A stretch of DNA of 64,000 nucleotides from Escherichia phage 55, in the sequence record OQ599310; one strand, 5' to 3'. The notes below the pieces were generated by a model. That model ran no database searches. It worked only from the letters and a program-made list of their open reading frames with translations, and was not told the origin of the DNA. Position 1 is the first letter of the stretch. Every line of letters starts with the position of its first letter. Positions 16,795 through 27,620 of this stretch are shown here, one piece after another. A program made the translations under genes and the position numbers.

Positions 16795-17712
16795 ATGGAT
16801 TTAGAAATGATGTTGGATGAAGATTACAAAGAAGGTATTGCACTTGCTGACTTTAGTAACATTGCATTGGCAGCCGCATTAAACAACTTTGAAGACGGCG
16901 ATAAAATTACTGTTCCAATGGTTCGACATGTAATCTTGAACTCAATTCGTAAAAACGTAGTGATGTTCCGTAAGCAAGGCTACACAAAATTTGTATTGTG
17001 TATGGATAATGCTACTTCAGGTTATTGGCGTCGTGACTTTGCTTACTATTACAAGAAAAATCGTAAAACCGATCGTGAAGCTTCAAAGTGGGATTGGGAA
17101 GGATATTTTACTGCACTCCATCAAGTTGTTGATGAGATTAAGAAATACATGCCATACGTTGTAATGGATATTGACAAGTATGAAGCGGATGACCATATTG
17201 GTGTATTAACTAAATATTTGTCATTAGCTGGTCATAAGGTATGTATTGTTGCATCAGATGGTGACTTTACACAATTACACAAATATCCTAACGTTAAACA
17301 GTGGTCGCCACCACAGAAAAAATGGGTTAAAATTAAGAACGGTTCTGCTGAAATTGATTGCATGACTAAAATTCTTAAAGGTGACCGTAAGGATGGTGTT
17401 GCATCTGTTCGAGTTCGTGGCGACTTCCGGTTTACCAGAGTTGATGGTGAACGAACTCCAAGCATGAAAACATCAATTATTGAAGCAATTGCTAATGACC
17501 GTTCTCAAGCTGAAGTATTATTAAGTGCAGAAGAATATAAACGGTATCAAGAAAATTTGGTTCTCATTGATTTTGATTATATCCCTGATAATATTGCTTC
17601 AACCATTATAGAGTATTATAACTCATATAAACAACAACCTAAAGGCAAGATTTATTCATACTTTGTAAAATCTGGTCTTTCTAAATTAACAAGTGTAATT
17701 AATGAATTCTGA
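16795..17712 (+). CDS. rnh: RNase H (5'-3' exonuclease)
   Basis: 305 aa; same size and position as T4 RNase H. Confidence 0.9.
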   Translation: MDLEMMLDEDYKEGIALADFSNIALAAALNNFEDGDKITVPMVRHVILNSIRKNVVMFRKQGYTKFVLCMDNATSGYWRRDFAYYYKKNRKTDREASKWDWEGYFTALHQVVDEIKKYMPYVVMDIDKYEADDHIGVLTKYLSLAGHKVCIVASDGDFTQLHKYPNVKQWSPPQKKWVKIKNGSAEIDCMTKILKGDRKDGVASVRVRGDFRFTRVDGERTPSMKTSIIEAIANDRSQAEVLLSAEEYKRYQENLVLIDFDYIPDNIASTIIEYYNSYKQQPKGKIYSYFVKSGLSKLTSVINEF

Positions 17713-17719
17713 GGTAAAC

Positions 17720-17989
17720 ATGGCTAAGAAAGAAGCAGTTGAATTTAATCAAGATGTGCATGGTGAAGAACTGGCTAAACTAGTCAAGGAAGCTTCCGAT
17801 AACAAACTTAAAATTTCTGGTTATAATGAACTGATTAAAGACATTCGTACTCGTGCTAAAGAAGAGCTTGGCGTCGATGGAAAAATGTTTAATCGTTTGT
17901 TAGCTCTTTATCATAAAGACGCTCGTGACCAATTTGAAGCTGAAAACGAAGAGGTAGTCGAGCTTTATGACACAGTTTTCACTAAGTGA
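17720..17989 (+). CDS. dsbA: DsbA, double-stranded DNA-binding protein
   Basis: Start moved to internal ATG 17720 (SD gaggt); MAKKEAVEFNQDVHGEELAKLVKEASDNKLKISGYNELIKDIRTRAKEELGVDGKMFNRLLALYHKD matches remembered T4 DsbA. Confidence 0.85.
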   Translation: MAKKEAVEFNQDVHGEELAKLVKEASDNKLKISGYNELIKDIRTRAKEELGVDGKMFNRLLALYHKDARDQFEAENEEVVELYDTVFTK

Positions 17990-18305
17990 TATTAAACCGG
18001 TTGATGAGGCCGGTTTATCTGAACAAGAATTAGCAGTAAAACACGATAAAGATGATATCGCTAAATTGCTTGACCGACAAGAAAACGGATTCATTATCGA
18101 ATCCATGGTTGAACAATTTGGTATGTCTTATTTAGAAGCAACAACTGCTTTCTTGGAAGAAAATTCTATTCCAGAAACACAATTTGCTAAATTTATTCCT
18201 ACAGGAATTGTTGAAAAAATTACAAGCGAAGCAATTGACGAAAACATGCTTCGCCCATCAGTTGCTCGTGGTGAAAAAACTAATACGTTAGATTTCTTAT
18301 TATGA
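17967..18305 (+). CDS. 33: gp33 late transcription co-activator
   Basis: 112 aa; size and position as T4 gp33. Confidence 0.88.
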   Translation: MTQFSLSDIKPVDEAGLSEQELAVKHDKDDIAKLLDRQENGFIIESMVEQFGMSYLEATTAFLEENSIPETQFAKFIPTGIVEKITSEAIDENMLRPSVARGEKTNTLDFLL

Positions 18306-18985
18306 AATACGTTGTGTATAAAACTACCAATAAAATAAATGGTAAAATTTATATAGGCGTACACAAAAAACATAAAGAGAAAGATTGGTATATTGGATCA
18401 GGCCGCGCTATATTAGCGGCCAAAGCTAAATATGGACTAAAAAATTTTTATACCGAAATTCTTTATGAATATGATAATGACAAGGACGCCTATAAAAAAG
18501 AAGCAGAATTGGTTAACGAAGATTTTGTTTTGCGAGATGATACTTATAACTTAGTTCCCGGTGGTAAAGGTGGTCCTGGTAAAAAACAAAGTGATGAAGC
18601 TAAAAGGTCTATTTCACTTTCTAAATTAGGTAAACCTAGATCTGAAGAGACTAAGGCTAAAGTATCTAAAACAAGACTAGAAAGAAAAATACCGTCACCT
18701 AATAAGGGTAAGAAACTATCTGAAGCTCACAAATTGGCCTTGAGTAAAGTCCGAAAAGGGCGAAAAACGAATAAGCCGATGCCTGATTCAACCAAAGAAG
18801 CTCTTAGAATAGCAAATTCAAAGCCGCATTCTAAAGAAAGAACTATTAAAAAACAAAAACCTATAATTATTGATGGTATAAAATACGCCTCGTGTAAAGA
18901 AGTTTCAAATGTTTTTAATATTTCTGCGTCTTTAGTTACATATAGACTTAAATCTTCAAAATGGTCCGGATGGAAATATGATTAA
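18302..18985 (+). CDS. GIY-YIG homing endonuclease (Seg/I-TevI-like), free-standing
   Basis: N-terminal GIY..YIG motifs (NGKIYIGVH ... WYIGSG), central Lys/Ser-rich NUMOD-like repeats, C-terminal helix-turn-helix-like segment; ATGA overlap with gene 33 stop and 8-bp overlap with gene 59 start. Confidence 0.85.
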   Translation: MKYVVYKTTNKINGKIYIGVHKKHKEKDWYIGSGRAILAAKAKYGLKNFYTEILYEYDNDKDAYKKEAELVNEDFVLRDDTYNLVPGGKGGPGKKQSDEAKRSISLSKLGKPRSEETKAKVSKTRLERKIPSPNKGKKLSEAHKLALSKVRKGRKTNKPMPDSTKEALRIANSKPHSKERTIKKQKPIIIDGIKYASCKEVSNVFNISASLVTYRLKSSKWSGWKYD

Positions 18986-19631
18986 AATACGCATGCCTCC
19001 TGATGGAGAACGTTATATTAATGGAAAATCGGTATATAAACTATACTTGATGTGCAAAAACCATTTTGGTGGTCGGTATGACGTAATCAAATATAACTGG
19101 TGCATGCGTGTTTCGGATAATGCGTATCAAAAACGCCGAGATAAATATTTCTTTGAGAAACTAGCAGAGAAATATAAGTTAAAGGAACTCACCTTGATAT
19201 TCATCAGTAACTTAGTTGCTAACCAAGATGCATGGATTGGTGAGATATCAGACGCTGATGCATTAGTTTTCTATAGGGAATATATTGGACGTCTCAAACA
19301 AGCCAAGGAGACGTTTGCCGAAGACATACGTAACATCTACTATTTCAGTAAGAAAGTGGAAGTTAGTGCGCTTCAAGAGATATTTGATTATAATAATAAA
19401 GTTCAGTCGAGCTACATATTTAAATTGCTACAAAGCAATATAATTTCATTTGAAACCTTCTTGTTGTTGGATTCATTCTTGAATATTATAGATAAGCATG
19501 ACGAACTTACTGACAATTTAGTCTGGCAAAATTATTCTACCAAATTAAAGGCATATCGAAAAATACTTCAAATCGATGGAAATGCTGCTAAGAAATTGTT
19601 CATAGAAACAATCAAATCATGTAAGTATTAA
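18978..19631 (+). CDS. 59: gp59 helicase loader
   Basis: 217 aa; near-identical to remembered T4 gp59 (DVIKYNWCMRVSD..AYQKRRDKYFF...SNLVANQDAWIG). Confidence 0.93.
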   Translation: MIKIRMPPDGERYINGKSVYKLYLMCKNHFGGRYDVIKYNWCMRVSDNAYQKRRDKYFFEKLAEKYKLKELTLIFISNLVANQDAWIGEISDADALVFYREYIGRLKQAKETFAEDIRNIYYFSKKVEVSALQEIFDYNNKVQSSYIFKLLQSNIISFETFLLLDSFLNIIDKHDELTDNLVWQNYSTKLKAYRKILQIDGNAAKKLFIETIKSCKY

Positions 19632-19660
19632 GCTTTATTTCTTGTGTGTTAAAATTACTT

Positions 19661-19668
19661 TATAAATA
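19661..19668 (+). promoter_or_regulatory. late promoter TATAAATA upstream of gene 32
   Basis: Exact TATAAATA at 19661-19668. Confidence 0.5.
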
Positions 19669-19678
19669 AATCATACCA

Positions 19679-19747
19679 GCTACGAGGTATAAGTGTCGTA
19701 GCAACCAACTGTAAATAAATTAAATAATCTAAATAAAGGTAAATATA
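19679..19747 (+). promoter_or_regulatory. gene 32 5' leader: hairpin (GCTACGA/TCGTAGC) plus A/U-rich repeats (UAAAUAAAUUAAAUAA), candidate translational operator
   Basis: Stem 19679-19685/19696-19702 followed by an unstructured A/U tract ending at the ATG; resembles the T4 gene 32 autoregulatory operator. Confidence 0.5.
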
Positions 19748-20695
19748 ATGTTTAAACGTAAATCTACTGCTGACCTCGCTGCTCAAATGGCTAAACTGAA
19801 CGGTAACAAAGGTTTCTCTTCAGAAGATAAAGGCGAATGGAAGCTGAAGCTAGATGCATCCGGTAATGGTCAAGCGGTAATTCGTTTCTTGCCAGCAAAA
19901 ACTGATGATGCACTACCATTTGCAATTCTTGTTAACCATGGTTTCAAGAAAAATGGTAAATGGTATATTGAAAATTGCTCTTCTACACATGGTGATTATG
20001 ACTCTTGTCCTGTATGTCAGTACATTATTAAAAATGACCTGTACAATACCAACAAAACTGAATATTCTCAACTGAAACGTAAAACTTCTTATTGGGCTAA
20101 TATTCTGGTTGTTAAAGACCCTCAAGCTCCAGATAATGAAGGTAAAGTATTTAAATATCGTTTCGGTAAAAAGATTTGGGACAAAATCAATGCAATGATT
20201 GCAGTTGATACCGAAATGGGTGAAACTCCAGTTGATGTTACTTGTCCGTTTGAAGGTGCTAACTTCGTTCTGAAAGCTAAGCAGGTTTCTGGTTTTAGCA
20301 ACTATGACGAATCTAAATTCTTGGGTCAATCTGAAATTCCTCGTATTAATGACGAAGCATTCCAGAAAGAACTATATGACCAGATGGTAGACCTTACTAC
20401 TTTGACGGCTAAAGACCAGTTCAAATCCTTTGAAAAATTAAATGAATCTTTCGCTAAGGTTCTTGGTACTGCCGCTCTTGGTGGTGCAGCAGCTGCAGCA
20501 GCTTCTGTTGCAGCAGCTGCAGCAGCTTCTGTTGCAGCTGCTGCAGCTTCTGTTGCAGATAAAGTTGCTTCTGACCTTGACGATTTTGATAAAGACATGG
20601 AAGCCTTTAGTTCTGCAAAAACTGAAGACGACTTCATGAGCTCTACCTCATCTTCTGATGACGGCGACCTCGATGACCTGTTAGCTGGTCTATAA
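19748..20695 (+). CDS. 32: gp32 single-stranded DNA-binding protein
   Basis: 315 aa; near-identical to remembered T4 gp32 with an expanded Ala-rich linker; acidic C-terminus ([12 protein letters not shown]). Confidence 0.95.
20486..20554 (+). repeat. in-frame tandem repeat, about 2.9 copies of a 24-bp unit (GCAGCAGCTGCAGCAGCTTCTGTT) encoding AAAAASVA
   Basis: Copies at 20486-20509, 20510-20533 and a 21-bp third copy 20534-20554, inside gene 32. Confidence 0.85.
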
Positions 20696-20751: not shown

Positions 20752-20780
20752 GTTTACTTCTTTCCTAGATGTGTTACTAT
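20752..20780 (+). promoter_or_regulatory. T4-type early promoter (GTTTAC, 17 bp, TGTGTTACTAT)
   Basis: GTTTAC 20752-20757; TACTAT 20775-20780. Confidence 0.55.
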
Positions 20781-20810
20781 AGACCTATCAAAACAAATGA
20801 GGAAATCATA

Positions 20811-21173
20811 ATGGAAACCGGAAAAACGTACATCATCAACCCTGCATTTAAAGCTACCTTCGCTAACGAATGCCCACAAAATGCTGAAATGCTGTCTTTG
20901 ATTGAGCTTCATGGCCCTAGTTTTGTTGTAAAAGACATGAACACAGAGTACGACGATGATAAATGTGTAACACGTGTAACTATGCGAGACGGCACTGAAT
21001 TGGGTTTTGACGGTAAGCCGGGTTCATATTTTGAGCTTTATGACGATGAGTTCAAATACTTCATCGAGGTATCCCCAGAGTCTATTTCTAAACAGTCACT
21101 CATCTTTGAAGTTACTGAAGATAACGCCCGTGATGTGATTGCAGAAATTAAAGAAATTTTTGGAATAAAATAA
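20811..21173 (+). CDS. hypothetical early protein, paralogue A (120 aa)
   Basis: Start moved to ATG 20811 (SD gaggaaatcataATG); shares LIELHGPSFVV and FKYFIE motifs with the next gene. Confidence 0.55.
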   Translation: METGKTYIINPAFKATFANECPQNAEMLSLIELHGPSFVVKDMNTEYDDDKCVTRVTMRDGTELGFDGKPGSYFELYDDEFKYFIEVSPESISKQSLIFEVTEDNARDVIAEIKEIFGIK

Positions 21174-21198: not shown

Positions 21199-21603
21199 AT
21201 GGAAATCGGAAAATCTTATATCATTAGCCCTTTATTTAAAGACGACTTTGTTCAAGAAGCACCACATAATAACGCTAAGATGTTAAAACTGATTGAACTC
21301 CATGGGCCTAGTTTTGTTGTAAACGGAATGGAACCTGATTATGATAGCGATACGTCAAACGTAGTAAGTGTAACTATGGAAGATGGTACTGTATGTTCTG
21401 CCGGTGGTGGAATTGAAACTTATTTTGAGATTTATCCTGACGAGTTTAAATACTTTATTGAGTACTTTACTGAGGTAGATTTAGTAAAGCCTCAACCTAC
21501 TAACGAAGGTATAACTTTAGGTGTAACAAAAATCCATTGTATCGTAGATGAAACCAACGTCGACGAAATCATCAAACTTTTGCAAAAAACTTTTAAAAAG
21601 TAG
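21199..21603 (+). CDS. hypothetical early protein, paralogue B (134 aa)
   Basis: Same RBS context (aaatgaggaaatcaaaATG) and shared motifs with 20811-21173; tandem duplicate. Confidence 0.55.
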   Translation: MEIGKSYIISPLFKDDFVQEAPHNNAKMLKLIELHGPSFVVNGMEPDYDSDTSNVVSVTMEDGTVCSAGGGIETYFEIYPDEFKYFIEYFTEVDLVKPQPTNEGITLGVTKIHCIVDETNVDEIIKLLQKTFKK

Positions 21604-22126: not shown

Positions 22127-23792
<1,666 letters not shown>

Positions 23793-24135: not shown

Positions 24136-26391
24136 ATGCAAGTAACTAAGAGCAGTGGTGTATCCCAAAATTTTGATGCACAGAAAATTATTCAAGTCTT
24201 AACTTGGCAATGTGAAGGAACACAAATTGACCCATATGAATTGTACGAAGAAATTAAGACCCATCTTGTCGACGGGATGAGCACCAAAGATATCCAGAAG
24301 ATTTGTATTAAAGTTGCAGCTAACTTGATTTCTGTCGAAGAACCTGACTATCAATATGTTGCCGCTAAAGGATTAATGTTTGCACTTCGTAAAGATGTGT
24401 ATGGGCAGTTTGAACCGCCTGCTTTTATCGACCATATTTCTTATTGTGTTAATGAAGGCAAATACGACCCTGAGCTGTTGTCTCAATATTCAGCAGAAGA
24501 AATCATTTATCTCGATTCACAGATTAAACATGAACGAGACTTTGACCTGACTTATGCTGGTGCTATGCAGCTTAAAGAAAAATATCTAGTTAAAGATAAA
24601 ACAACTGGGAAGATTTATGAAACTCCACAGTTTGCTATCATGGCTATTGGCATGGCCTTACATCAAGACGAAACTCATGACCGTTTGAAACATATTATTC
24701 GTTTTTATGATGCCGTTTCTACTCATCAAGTTTCATTGCCAACCCCAATTATGGCAGGTGCTCGTACTCCAACTCGCCAGTTCTCTAGTTGTGTAGTTAT
24801 TGAAGCCGGTGATTCGTTAAAATCTATTAACAAAACTTCAGCATCAATTATTGAATATATTTCTAAACGAGCTGGTATTGGTATCAACGTTGGTATGCTT
24901 CGTGCAGAAGGTTCTAAGATTGGTATGGGTGAAGTTCGACATACAGGTGTTATTCCATTCTGGAAACATTTCCAAACTGCAGTAAAATCTTGTTCTCAAG
25001 GTGGTATTCGTGGTGGTGCTGCTACAGCATATTATCCGATGTGGCACTTAGAAGTAGAGAACCTATTAGTTCTGAAAAATAACAAAGGTGTGGATGAAAA
25101 CCGTATTCGACATATGGACTACGGAATTCAGATTAATGACCTTATGATGGAACGCCTTGGTAAAAATGATTATATTACTTTATTTAGCCCTCACGAAATG
25201 TCAGGCGAACTATACTACTCGTTCTTTGAAGATCAAGATAAATTCCGTGAGCTTTATGAGAAAGCTGAAAAAGACCCAACAATCAGAAAGAAAAGAATCA
25301 AAGCACTAGAACTCTTTGAATTGTTCATGACTGAACGCTCTGGTACTGCTCGAATTTATCCACAATTCGTTGATAACACGAACAACTACACTCCATTTAT
25401 TCGTGAAAAAGCTCCAATTCGACAGAGTAACTTATGTTGTGAAATCGCTATTCCAACTAATGATGTGAATGGTCCTGATGCTGAAATTGGTTTATGCACA
25501 TTATCTGCATTCGTGTTAGATAAATTTGATTGGCAAGACCAAGATAAAATTAATGAACTTGCTGAAGTACAAGTACGTGCACTTGATAACCTGTTAGACT
25601 ATCAAGACTATCCGGTTCCAGAAGCTTTAAAAGCTAAAAAGCGTCGTAATCTTGGTATTGGTGTTACGAACTATGCTGCATGGTTAGCTTCTAACTTTGC
25701 TTCATATGAAGACGCTAACGATTTGACTCATGAATTGTTTGAGAGATTGCAATATGGCCTTATCAAAGCATCAATCAAACTCGCCAAAGAAAAAGGACGT
25801 TGCGAGTATTATTCAGACACTAAATGGTCTAGAGGCGAATTACCTATCGACTGGTACAATAAAAAGATTGACCAAATCGCAGCCCCAAACTATGTCTGTG
25901 ACTGGGAAGAACTTCGAGCTGAACTCAAAGAACATGGAATTCGTAACTCAACGTTATCTGCACTCATGCCTTGTGAGTCAAGCAGTCAAGTATCAAACTC
26001 TACAAACGGGATTGAACCGCCGCGTGGTCCAGTAAGTATTAAAGAATCTAAAGAAGGCAACTTCCGACAAGTAGTTCCTAATATTGAACACAACATGGGT
26101 CTTTATGACTATGCGTGGAAACTCGCTAAGAAAGGTAATAAGCCTTATCTGACACAAGTTGTTATCATGTTAAAATGGGTGTGCCAATCTGCTTCTGCTA
26201 ATACATACTACGACCCTTCAGTCTTTGAGAAAGGCAAAGTGCCAATGTCTGTAATGCTTGATGACTTGCTTTACTTCTGGTACTTTGGTGGTAAGAACCT
26301 TTACTATCATAACACTCGAGATGGTTCTGGTACAGATGACTATGAGTTAGAAACGCCTAAAGCTGAAGATTGCTCCGCTTGTAAGCTTTAA
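24136..26391 (+). CDS. nrdA: ribonucleotide reductase large subunit
   Basis: 751 aa; class Ia NrdA features (N-terminal ATP cone, active-site Cys/Glu/Cys region NLCCEI, C-terminal Cys pair). Confidence 0.95.
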   Translation: MQVTKSSGVSQNFDAQKIIQVLTWQCEGTQIDPYELYEEIKTHLVDGMSTKDIQKICIKVAANLISVEEPDYQYVAAKGLMFALRKDVYGQFEPPAFIDHISYCVNEGKYDPELLSQYSAEEIIYLDSQIKHERDFDLTYAGAMQLKEKYLVKDKTTGKIYETPQFAIMAIGMALHQDETHDRLKHIIRFYDAVSTHQVSLPTPIMAGARTPTRQFSSCVVIEAGDSLKSINKTSASIIEYISKRAGIGINVGMLRAEGSKIGMGEVRHTGVIPFWKHFQTAVKSCSQGGIRGGAATAYYPMWHLEVENLLVLKNNKGVDENRIRHMDYGIQINDLMMERLGKNDYITLFSPHEMSGELYYSFFEDQDKFRELYEKAEKDPTIRKKRIKALELFELFMTERSGTARIYPQFVDNTNNYTPFIREKAPIRQSNLCCEIAIPTNDVNGPDAEIGLCTLSAFVLDKFDWQDQDKINELAEVQVRALDNLLDYQDYPVPEALKAKKRRNLGIGVTNYAAWLASNFASYEDANDLTHELFERLQYGLIKASIKLAKEKGRCEYYSDTKWSRGELPIDWYNKKIDQIAAPNYVCDWEELRAELKEHGIRNSTLSALMPCESSSQVSNSTNGIEPPRGPVSIKESKEGNFRQVVPNIEHNMGLYDYAWKLAKKGNKPYLTQVVIMLKWVCQSASANTYYDPSVFEKGKVPMSVMLDDLLYFWYFGGKNLYYHNTRDGSGTDDYELETPKAEDCSACKL

Positions 26392-26441: not shown

Positions 26442-27620
26442 ATGAGTACAGTTTTTAATACCCAAAAAGTTGATGTTTTGAATGAACCAATGTTCTTTGG
26501 TTCCGGTCTTGGCCTTGCGCGTTACGATATTCAACGCCATAAAGTTTTTGAAGAGCTTATTGAAAAGCAATTGTCGTTTTTTTGGCGCCCTGAAGAGGTA
26601 AACTTGATGTTGGACTCTGCGCAGTTCAATAAGCTTCCACAGTTCCAACAGAACATCTTTACGAACAACCTTAAGTATCAATCATTATTGGATTCTATCC
26701 AAGGCAGGGCACCATCTGCGGTACTTATGGCATTGCTTTCCGACCCTTCATTAGATACATGGGTTGCTACATGGACATTCAGTGAAACCATTCACTCTCG
26801 TTCATATACTCATATCATGCGAAATCTTTATACTGATCCATCGAAGGTATTTGATGAGATTGTATTAGATGAAGCAATTATGAAACGTGCGGAATCAATC
26901 GGCAAATATTATGATGATGTTCTAGTTAAAACACGTGAATGGGAAAATGCTAAAGAAATTTTTAAATGTTTTTCCGAAAATGAATATGATTTGGATGCAT
27001 ATTCAAATAGTCTTATGCATGTGGAAGAATGTAAACGTGCATTAATGAAGTCTCTTTATCTCTGCTTACACGTTATTAACGCCTTAGAAGCTATTCGTTT
27101 TTACGTATCATTTGCATGTACTTTCAACTTCCATAAGAACATGGAAATCATGGAAGGTAATGCAAAGATTATGAAGTTTATCGCTCGTGACGAACAACTC
27201 CACCTTAAAGGCACTCAGTACATTATTCGACAGCTCCAACTTGGTGTTGATGGGGATGAATGGGTTCAAATTGCTAAAGAGTGTGAGCAAGAAGCAGTAG
27301 ATATCTTTATGGAAGTAAATAGTCAAGAGAAGGAATGGGCTGCACACCTCTTTAAAGACGGTACATGTCCAGGTATCAATACGCAGAGTATGTGTGCTTT
27401 TGTTGATTACTTGACTGTGTCTCGTATGAAACAGTGCGGTTTGCCATGCCCAATCACTGATGCTCCGACCAAGCATCCGTATCCTTGGATTCGTGAATAT
27501 CTGAACTCTGATTTAGTTCAAGCAGCTCCTCAGGAAGTTGAAATCAGTTCTTATCTTGTCGCACAAATTGATAATGATGTAGACCAAAATGTAATCAATT
27601 CATACAAAAAATATTTCTAA
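26442..27620 (+). CDS. nrdB: ribonucleotide reductase small subunit, uninterrupted (no intron)
   Basis: 392 aa continuous ORF; di-iron/tyrosyl-radical NrdB family. Confidence 0.95.
   Translation: MSTVFNTQKVDVLNEPMFFGSGLGLARYDIQRHKVFEELIEKQLSFFWRPEEVNLMLDSAQFNKLPQFQQNIFTNNLKYQSLLDSIQGRAPSAVLMALLSDPSLDTWVATWTFSETIHSRSYTHIMRNLYTDPSKVFDEIVLDEAIMKRAESIGKYYDDVLVKTREWENAKEIFKCFSENEYDLDAYSNSLMHVEECKRALMKSLYLCLHVINALEAIRFYVSFACTFNFHKNMEIMEGNAKIMKFIARDEQLHLKGTQYIIRQLQLGVDGDEWVQIAKECEQEAVDIFMEVNSQEKEWAAHLFKDGTCPGINTQSMCAFVDYLTVSRMKQCGLPCPITDAPTKHPYPWIREYLNSDLVQAAPQEVEISSYLVAQIDNDVDQNVINSYKKYF

Follow-up and report, generated by a model that had tools for sequence, protein, structure and literature searches.

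Why does an RB69-like phage carry a putative homing endonuclease gene (HEG) in the midst of its replication genes, is this gene still mobile, and which sequence would it attack in phages that lack it? Free-standing HEGs shape allele survival in co-infection, with consequences for mosaicism and for how phage cocktails behave; the HEG lineage considered here is lodged in the operon for core replication and late transcription. The window (the whole 64-kb stretch of DNA analysed here) belongs to an RB69-like Mosigvirus and is 96–99% identical to many Mosigvirus isolates over the 2.3 kb around the HEG. The gene is already labelled 'homing endonuclease' in many GenBank records and automated pipelines.

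Results

A free-standing gene that overlaps both of its neighbours

An earlier note on this DNA had described an open reading frame (ORF) lodged between genes 33 and 59, overlapping both and embedded in the rnh-dsbA-33-59-32 operon, and our analysis agrees on each of these points. The HEG occupies positions 18302–18985 of the plus strand, with an ATG start and 227 codons followed by a stop. On the same strand, it is preceded by gene 33, coding for the late-transcription coactivator (17967–18305; PF16805, 3.5e-26), and followed by gene 59, coding for the helicase loader (18978–19631; PF08993, 1.9e-49, and PF08994, 1.1e-44, for the N and C domains of gp59), which is the putative target gene; both neighbours are essential. 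Pfam matches to T4 RNase H, DsbA, gp33, gp59 and gp32 establish the gene order rnh-dsbA-33-HEG-59-32. At the upstream junction (...TTCTTATT-ATGA-AATAC...), the ATG of the HEG shares bases with the TGA of gene 33 in an ATGA overlap (18302–18305, plus strand). The downstream junction (...GGAAAT-ATGATTAA-AATACGC) contains an 8 nt overlap, ATGATTAA (18978–18985, plus strand), an arrangement that is conserved across the clade described below. The ATG of gene 59 lies at 18978 and the HEG stop codon at 18983–18985, the gene 59 start being located inside the HEG end ...AAA TAT GAT TAA.

The HEG is an ORF of its own between phage genes, and is neither intron- nor intein-borne; Rfam detected no group I intron, nor any other RNA family, in the whole 64-kb window. 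The td (22932–23792), nrdA (24136–26391) and nrdB (26442–27620) genes are uninterrupted, with full-length Pfam matches, as the earlier note had stated for td and nrdB. No further HEG was found among ten other mid-sized ORFs screened in the window. Downstream of gene 32, two adjacent ORFs of 134 aa (20769–21173 and 21199–21603) are clear paralogues and represent a tandem duplication.

The HEG protein is predicted to share the modular plan of I-TevI

The N-terminal GIY-YIG catalytic domain corresponds to residues 1–92 (18302–18577, plus strand). The GIY and YIG motifs are found at the N-terminus as V-V-Y6 and Y17-I-G19, with a spacing of about 10–11 residues. Across 39 aligned homologous sequences, the residues Y6, Y17, G19, E67 and N83 do not vary. 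In a profile alignment with the catalytic domain of I-TevI (1mk0/1ln0), Y6, Y17, G19 and N83 correspond to Y6, Y17, G19 and N90, respectively, and E67 falls one residue off E75. The region of I-TevI Arg27, the conserved Arg that follows the YIG strand, aligns with a gap, and no equivalent residue emerged from the sequence comparison; R35 of the HEG protein is not conserved in the clade, whereas H21, Y30 and K43 are. At the N-terminus, the SegE_GIY-YIG family (PF19835) scored 1.5e-4 and 22.4 bits, under its 25-bit cut-off, and no match to GIY-YIG (PF01541) was reported for the HEG protein in the Pfam search; matches to PF01541 and PF19835 do occur in close homologues. The protein matches PHROG_314 ('homing endonuclease') at 1.2e-55 and has 627 homologues at E ≤ 1e-5.

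The catalytic domain is followed by a Lys/Ser-rich helical linker with three to four NUMOD3-like repeats (residues ~95–175; 18584–18826, plus strand). NUMOD3 (PF07460) was matched below cut-off in the HEG protein (E = 0.0028) and is found in many homologues. The linker lacks a zinc finger: C198 is the only Cys of the sequence, which therefore has no Cys4 cluster. The C-terminal domain (residues 183–227; 18848–18982, plus strand) is a helix-turn-helix DNA-binding domain of the I-TevI type, matching PF20987 (I-TevI_DNA-bd) over residues 183–226 (5.8e-12, 45.7 bits against a 27-bit cut-off). The HEG C-terminus also matches PDB entry 1i3j, both by phmmer (4.4e-4) and as the top Foldseek match.

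The AlphaFold2 model has a mean pLDDT of 86, with values of 87–96 for residues 1–90. It consists of a beta-rich N-domain, four linker helices (98–108, 115–128, 141–155 and 162–173) and a C-terminal helix-turn-helix. A Foldseek comparison with 1mk0/1ln0 gave a probability of 1.00 and a target-normalised TM score of 0.64, corresponding to the GIY-YIG alpha/beta fold, and the best PDB matches of the model are the two I-TevI domains. Sequence profiles and the structural model thus show a predicted bipartite protein of the I-TevI kind, with a nuclease at the N-terminus and a helix-turn-helix at the C-terminus. The three elements that had been read from the letters in the earlier note (GIY-YIG motifs, NUMOD-like Lys/Ser repeats and a DNA-binding-like C-terminal segment) are all recovered, and the catalytic residues, whose loss on alignment it had regarded as a sign of a degenerate gene, are retained.

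The HEG appears to be expressed with its neighbours

No T4 late TATAAATA box was found upstream of the HEG. The only MotA-box-like site, at 18064, has no convincing -10 element. Sigma-70-like sites were weak partial matches to the consensus (23 found against 14.8 ± 3.5 expected), none of which could be singled out as a HEG promoter. A dedicated promoter was therefore rejected. No Shine-Dalgarno sequence precedes the HEG ATG. A Shine-Dalgarno-like motif, GGATGG, is present inside the HEG, 6–11 nt upstream of the gene 59 start. In the same scan, an Ala/Ser-rich repeat encoded in the 3′ part of gene 32 (~20479–20600), which belongs to the C-terminal region of gp32 and contains an indel relative to phage ATK47, yielded spurious terminator-like hairpins.

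Promoter-less cassettes are established for T4 segC, segF and segG (Edgell 2010, PMC2988022), and the lack of both promoter and Shine-Dalgarno sequence fits the HEG into this type. It would be transcribed together with genes 33 and 59. Ribosomes that terminate at the gene 33 stop (AUGA), where no ribosome-binding site is present, would reinitiate on the HEG and yield little protein; the ribosome-binding site and start codon of gene 59 are presumably supplied by the 3′ end of the HEG.

A precise presence/absence polymorphism among closely related phages

The HEG is present in 28 of ~153 Mosigvirus GenBank records and missing from ~125 (about 82%). RB69, listed as devoid of HEGs by Petrov et al. 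2010 (PMC2993671), and ATK47 both lack it, and the HEG-less records match the region in two pieces that skip the ORF. The indel is exactly 676 bp long, with identical boundaries, between phages whose flanks are 97–99% identical; the 28 HEG-bearing records match the full region at 96–99% identity. The junction alignment with ATK47 places the missing segment at 18306–18981 (plus strand), with duplicated ATGA flanks. HEG-less phages read ...TTCTTATTATGATTAAAATACGC... at the junction, where the gene 33 stop overlaps the gene 59 start as ATGA, and T4 joins genes 33 and 59 by the same ATGA. An identical gap was observed in the 14 HEG-less phages of our panel alignment (see below). A single ICTV species, Mosigvirus mar005p1, holds both states: JK42 and WFbE185 carry the HEG, MM02, moskry and mar005P1 do not. 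Beyond GenBank, a gp59 scan of IMG/VR returned only one Mosigvirus contig, and a metagenome scan gave only five contigs, each of these five being HEG-less. We also noticed that gene 59 is annotated from an internal ATG in RB69 (AY303349.1; our locus L040, 1126–1653) and in phage SF (L044, 1016–1654), both of which retain the conserved gene 59 start overlapping the gene 33 stop (ATGA).

All 13 HEG copies that were extracted contain an intact ORF of 227 codons. They form 12 haplotypes and differ from the window copy at no more than 39 of 684 nt. The pN/pS ratio of these copies is 0.12, so that, judged by its substitution pattern, the HEG is under purifying selection. Its synonymous diversity (0.098) falls within the range of the neighbouring genes (0.05–0.135) and its GC content matches that of the flanks. 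These data indicate a maintained gene that has resided for a long time in this gene pool, and the HEG is intact and probably still active. The Pfam GIY-YIG scores, being under the gathering cut-offs, could have suggested a decaying pseudogene or a chance ORF. This possibility, to which we assign practically no weight, is refuted by the PHROG match, by the number of homologues, by the intactness and purifying selection of every copy examined, and by a confidently predicted structure whose two domains correspond to those of I-TevI.

The same slot is occupied by related HEGs in other lineages

Homologues of the HEG with 47–57% identity were found in the 33/59 slot in all seven other lineages whose genomic context was read. 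The Dhakavirus phages IME540 (QJA42504.1) and AnYang harbour a 57%-identical homologue at this position, with both overlaps as in the window, and an IMG/VR genome (L013) a 52%-identical one. In five further loci (P0004, P0006, P0008, P0010, which is Serratia phage LC53, and P0012), homologues with 47–56% identity are located between the Trans_coact (gp33) and gp59 genes, overlapping gene 33 by 4 nt and gene 59 by 8 or 26 nt. Members of this clade (IME540, AnYang, Serratia phage LC53 and the metagenomic P0002–P0015) have 46–57% identity over their full length to the Mosigvirus HEG and share their domain order and ATGA overlap with it; the Mosigvirus HEG differs from them by the loss of codon 2 (MK- instead of MIK-) and of one C-terminal codon (KYD instead of KYHD); some members have ~30 fewer linker residues. 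Between genera, the divergence of the HEG is about equal to that of gp33 and gp32. The existence of an old clade dedicated to the 33/59 slot in several T-even genera indicates that the HEG is not a recent arrival.

In most lineages, the first three HEG codons are identical to the first three gene 59 codons of the same genome (ATGATTAAR; loci L025 and L052–L056), and in one of them (L056) ATGATTCGT is found at both the HEG start and the gene 59 start. In the window copy (18302–18310 compared with 18978–18986), HEG codon 2 is missing from this shared repeat. The repeat suggests that the insert is bounded by a direct repeat of ~9 nt and that the HEG captured the gene 59 start region. We infer that the HEG took over the translational coupling of gene 59 to gene 33, its last codons carrying a replacement gene 59 start.

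This arrangement bears on the alternative that the protein no longer homes, and that the gene is kept for the embedded gene 59 start region or has been co-opted, for example as an anti-competitor weapon or a regulator. The ribosome-binding site and ATG of gene 59 do lie within the last HEG codons, and the clade has stayed in its slot while diverging about like gp33 and gp32. Furthermore, embedded expression signals that favour HEG retention have been described for T4 (PMC2988022), and a side effect that benefits the host has been reported for the Seg enzyme SegB (PMC13096335). However, coupling alone would not hold pN/pS at 0.12 with all nuclease motif residues invariant. HEG-less phages use the same ATGA coupling to gene 33 for the expression of gene 59, so that a clean loss of the HEG is viable and common (about 82% of the records are without it), and the patchy distribution within the species Mosigvirus mar005p1 fits gain and loss. 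We therefore consider retention without homing to be improbable.

A short patch in gene 59 is tied to the HEG

We aligned 13 HEG-bearing and 14 HEG-less Mosigvirus loci over window positions 17320–19960. Among ~200 variable sites in the flanks, only 19037, 19059, 19061 and 19068–69 track the HEG. These sites define a patch at 19037–19069 (plus strand), corresponding to nt 60–92 of gene 59, with the alleles T, A, C and GG in HEG-bearing phages against C, C, A and AA in HEG-less ones. The patch alleles were found in 13 of 13 HEG-bearing and 0–1 of 14 HEG-less loci. Three additional alleles (19025T, 19031A and 19064C) were found only in some HEG-bearing phages of the panel. All sites to the left, and sites from 19157 rightward (~90 bp beyond the patch), are shuffled relative to the HEG. 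The patch changes the gp59 protein by Q28N and N31G; T4 and the HEG-less Mosigvirus phages have Q28 and N31.

The sample was extended by a 60-nt BLAST search with 19033–19092, matches of at least 95% identity being scored as patch-type and those of 90–95% as common-type. This gave 58 patch-type and 95 common-type records. The patch was present in 28 of 28 HEG-bearing records and in ~30 of ~125 HEG-less ones (about 24%; Fisher p = 8e-15), about three quarters of the HEG-less genomes having the common allele. The near-perfect two-way association of the first panel was consequently dropped: the patch is not private to HEG-bearing phages, as ~30 HEG-less records also carry it. The association is one-way, in that the HEG never occurs with the common allele, as expected if the enzyme cuts this allele. 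The HEG-less patch carriers include AV111, G2285, F2, PNJ-9, sutha, JQD51 and the LF82 series, and a patch-like allele was found in one of the five metagenomic HEG-less contigs (L059, NFYZ01006445.1). Such carriers could have arisen by HEG loss or by partial co-conversion, or could represent an old haplotype. LF82-1 (L037) is a partial recombinant, with C at 19037 and the HEG-type alleles at 19059–19069.

A comparable pattern was observed in Dhakavirus. Two HEG-bearing and two HEG-less phages show 11 fixed differences, all located in nt 15–78 of gene 59. The remainder of the 1.2 kb compared, which includes 600 bp to the left and the other parts of gene 59, has no such difference. This represents 11 changes in 64 bp against a background of 1–3%. 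The dense part (nt 57–78) overlaps the Mosigvirus patch (nt 60–92) only partly. Close relatives were used for this test, the comparison of IME540 with distant HEG-less loci being uninformative at only 70% identity.

From these patterns, the patch would either determine immunity or make up the stretch from the cut site to the HEG that is necessarily co-converted; in either case, the 5′ end of gene 59 is indicated. The 33/59 junction had previously been proposed as the place to define the target site by comparison with HEG-less relatives. That comparison did give exact insertion boundaries, but the likely target is not simply the junction and would rather lie within the first ~95 nt of gene 59.

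The patch is nevertheless only 56–91 bp from the HEG, and the same association could result from linkage alone, to the haplotype that originally received the HEG. An active enzyme might accordingly recognise the uninterrupted 33/59 junction (...TTCTTATTATGATTAAAATACGC...), which the insertion splits, the patch being hitch-hiking donor DNA or an ancestral haplotype with no role in immunity. Enzymes of the I-TevI type bind at the insertion site, and here the exact insertion parts the two halves of the junction. At a distance of no more than 91 bp tight linkage is expected, and ~30 HEG-less carriers are what an old haplotype should leave. Against a junction target, the HEGs of Dhakavirus, which form a second lineage, likewise occur with a dense patch of substitutions in this stretch of gene 59, and none of 28 HEG-bearing records has the common allele despite recombination that shuffles sites ~90 bp further on. 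In addition, the usual cut site of those Seg enzymes that have been characterised lies within the adjacent gene and not at the insertion point (PMC2988022). Recognition of the junction thus appears unlikely, although it is the more serious of the competing explanations.

Discussion

We propose that the gene is a functional, free-standing GIY-YIG HEG of the Seg-like type, carried as a promoter-less cassette. Its product would cut HEG-less genomes at the 5′ end of gene 59, and the patch would protect the carrier genome from it. On the comparative evidence, we estimate the probability of this reading at roughly 0.7. The C-terminal helix-turn-helix would anchor the protein on DNA, and the N-terminal nuclease, held on its NUMOD3 linker, would cut nearby. 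During mixed infection, the enzyme would cleave gene 59 of the HEG-less genome within or close to its first ~95 nt, and recombinational repair of the T4 type would then copy the HEG and adjacent markers from the HEG-bearing genome. The latter should be protected by the five substitutions at nt 60–92 of gene 59. For T4 SegC, SegF and SegG, cutting away from the insertion site is established (Edgell 2010, PMC2988022). Ongoing homing is supported indirectly by the precise polymorphism among phages with more than 96% identity, by the signs of purifying selection and by the linkage to the gene 59 patch.

A more tentative extension, which we regard as possible but doubtful, is that the HEG and its target have been caught in mid-cycle, with ~18% of the records HEG-bearing, ~20% HEG-less and putatively resistant, and ~60% HEG-less and putatively sensitive. 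Two related HEG lineages would then repeatedly force amino-acid changes in the N-terminal domain of the essential helicase loader gp59 (Q28N and N31G in Mosigvirus, M25Q in Dhakavirus), and the HEG-less patch carriers would have arisen by escape or by partial co-conversion, as opposed to representing an old neutral haplotype. If true, a selfish nuclease would directly drive the evolution of a core replisome protein.

Independently of this extension, the locus offers a natural system, other than T4 x T2 crosses, in which homing, the length of co-conversion tracts and target immunity could be measured, and could show whether HEG pressure drives amino-acid change in gp59. HEG-bearing phages, HEG-less phages with the common allele and HEG-less phages with the patch are all available. 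The polymorphism extends to culture-collection phages: in the BASEL collection, Bas45 carries the HEG, and Bas46 is HEG-less with a putatively sensitive allele. Beyond its use as a natural test system, the HEG adds no new principle and is a conventional, Seg-like member of a familiar class. The literature searched contained neither a description of a HEG at the 33/59 junction nor an experimental study of this lineage, of its insertion site or of the 33/59 clade.

Comparison with known homing endonucleases

T4 segG is located between genes 59 and 32, and SegG cuts gene 32 (Liu et al. 2003; Edgell 2010, PMC2988022). The earlier note was thus correct in placing a T4 seg gene at the neighbouring 32/59 junction, a site other than the present one. 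Both genes are promoter-less, free-standing HEGs that occupy neighbouring slots of the same operon beside an essential replication gene, but segG lies on the other side of gene 59. The HEG protein shows no BLASTP similarity to T4 SegG at E < 1e-3, and with its different position this rules out a SegG orthologue. Dhakavirus IME540 (L025) carries both the 33/59 HEG (2498–3184) and a SegG homologue (3845–4462; 58% identity to T4 SegG), indicating that the two are independent elements. Gene 59 is bracketed in this way by two unrelated GIY-YIG HEGs in some Dhakavirus-like phages (L025; L055, 3846–4511; L049, 1549 onward).

The closest named relatives are SegH (RB3/U5/PP01-type) and T4 SegC. In tblastn searches, PP01 segH showed ~35% identity over 98% of the query and T4 segC ~33% over 96%, and the annotators of phage Shf125875 called the gene 'SegH-like'. 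Both have other genomic sites and target genes other than the one proposed here, and ~35% identity does not indicate orthology. The segH gene replaces mobC. The segC gene is located at 5.1/5.3 (PMC2988022).

With I-TevI, encoded in the T4 td intron (PDB 1mk0/1ln0 and 1i3j), the HEG protein shares the modular plan of an N-terminal GIY-YIG nuclease, a long linker and a C-terminal helix-turn-helix. The catalytic domains have only 23–24% identity, and the linker of I-TevI contains a zinc finger where that of the HEG protein has NUMOD3-like helices. Finally, I-TevI is intron-encoded, whereas the HEG described here is free-standing and would have a different target gene.
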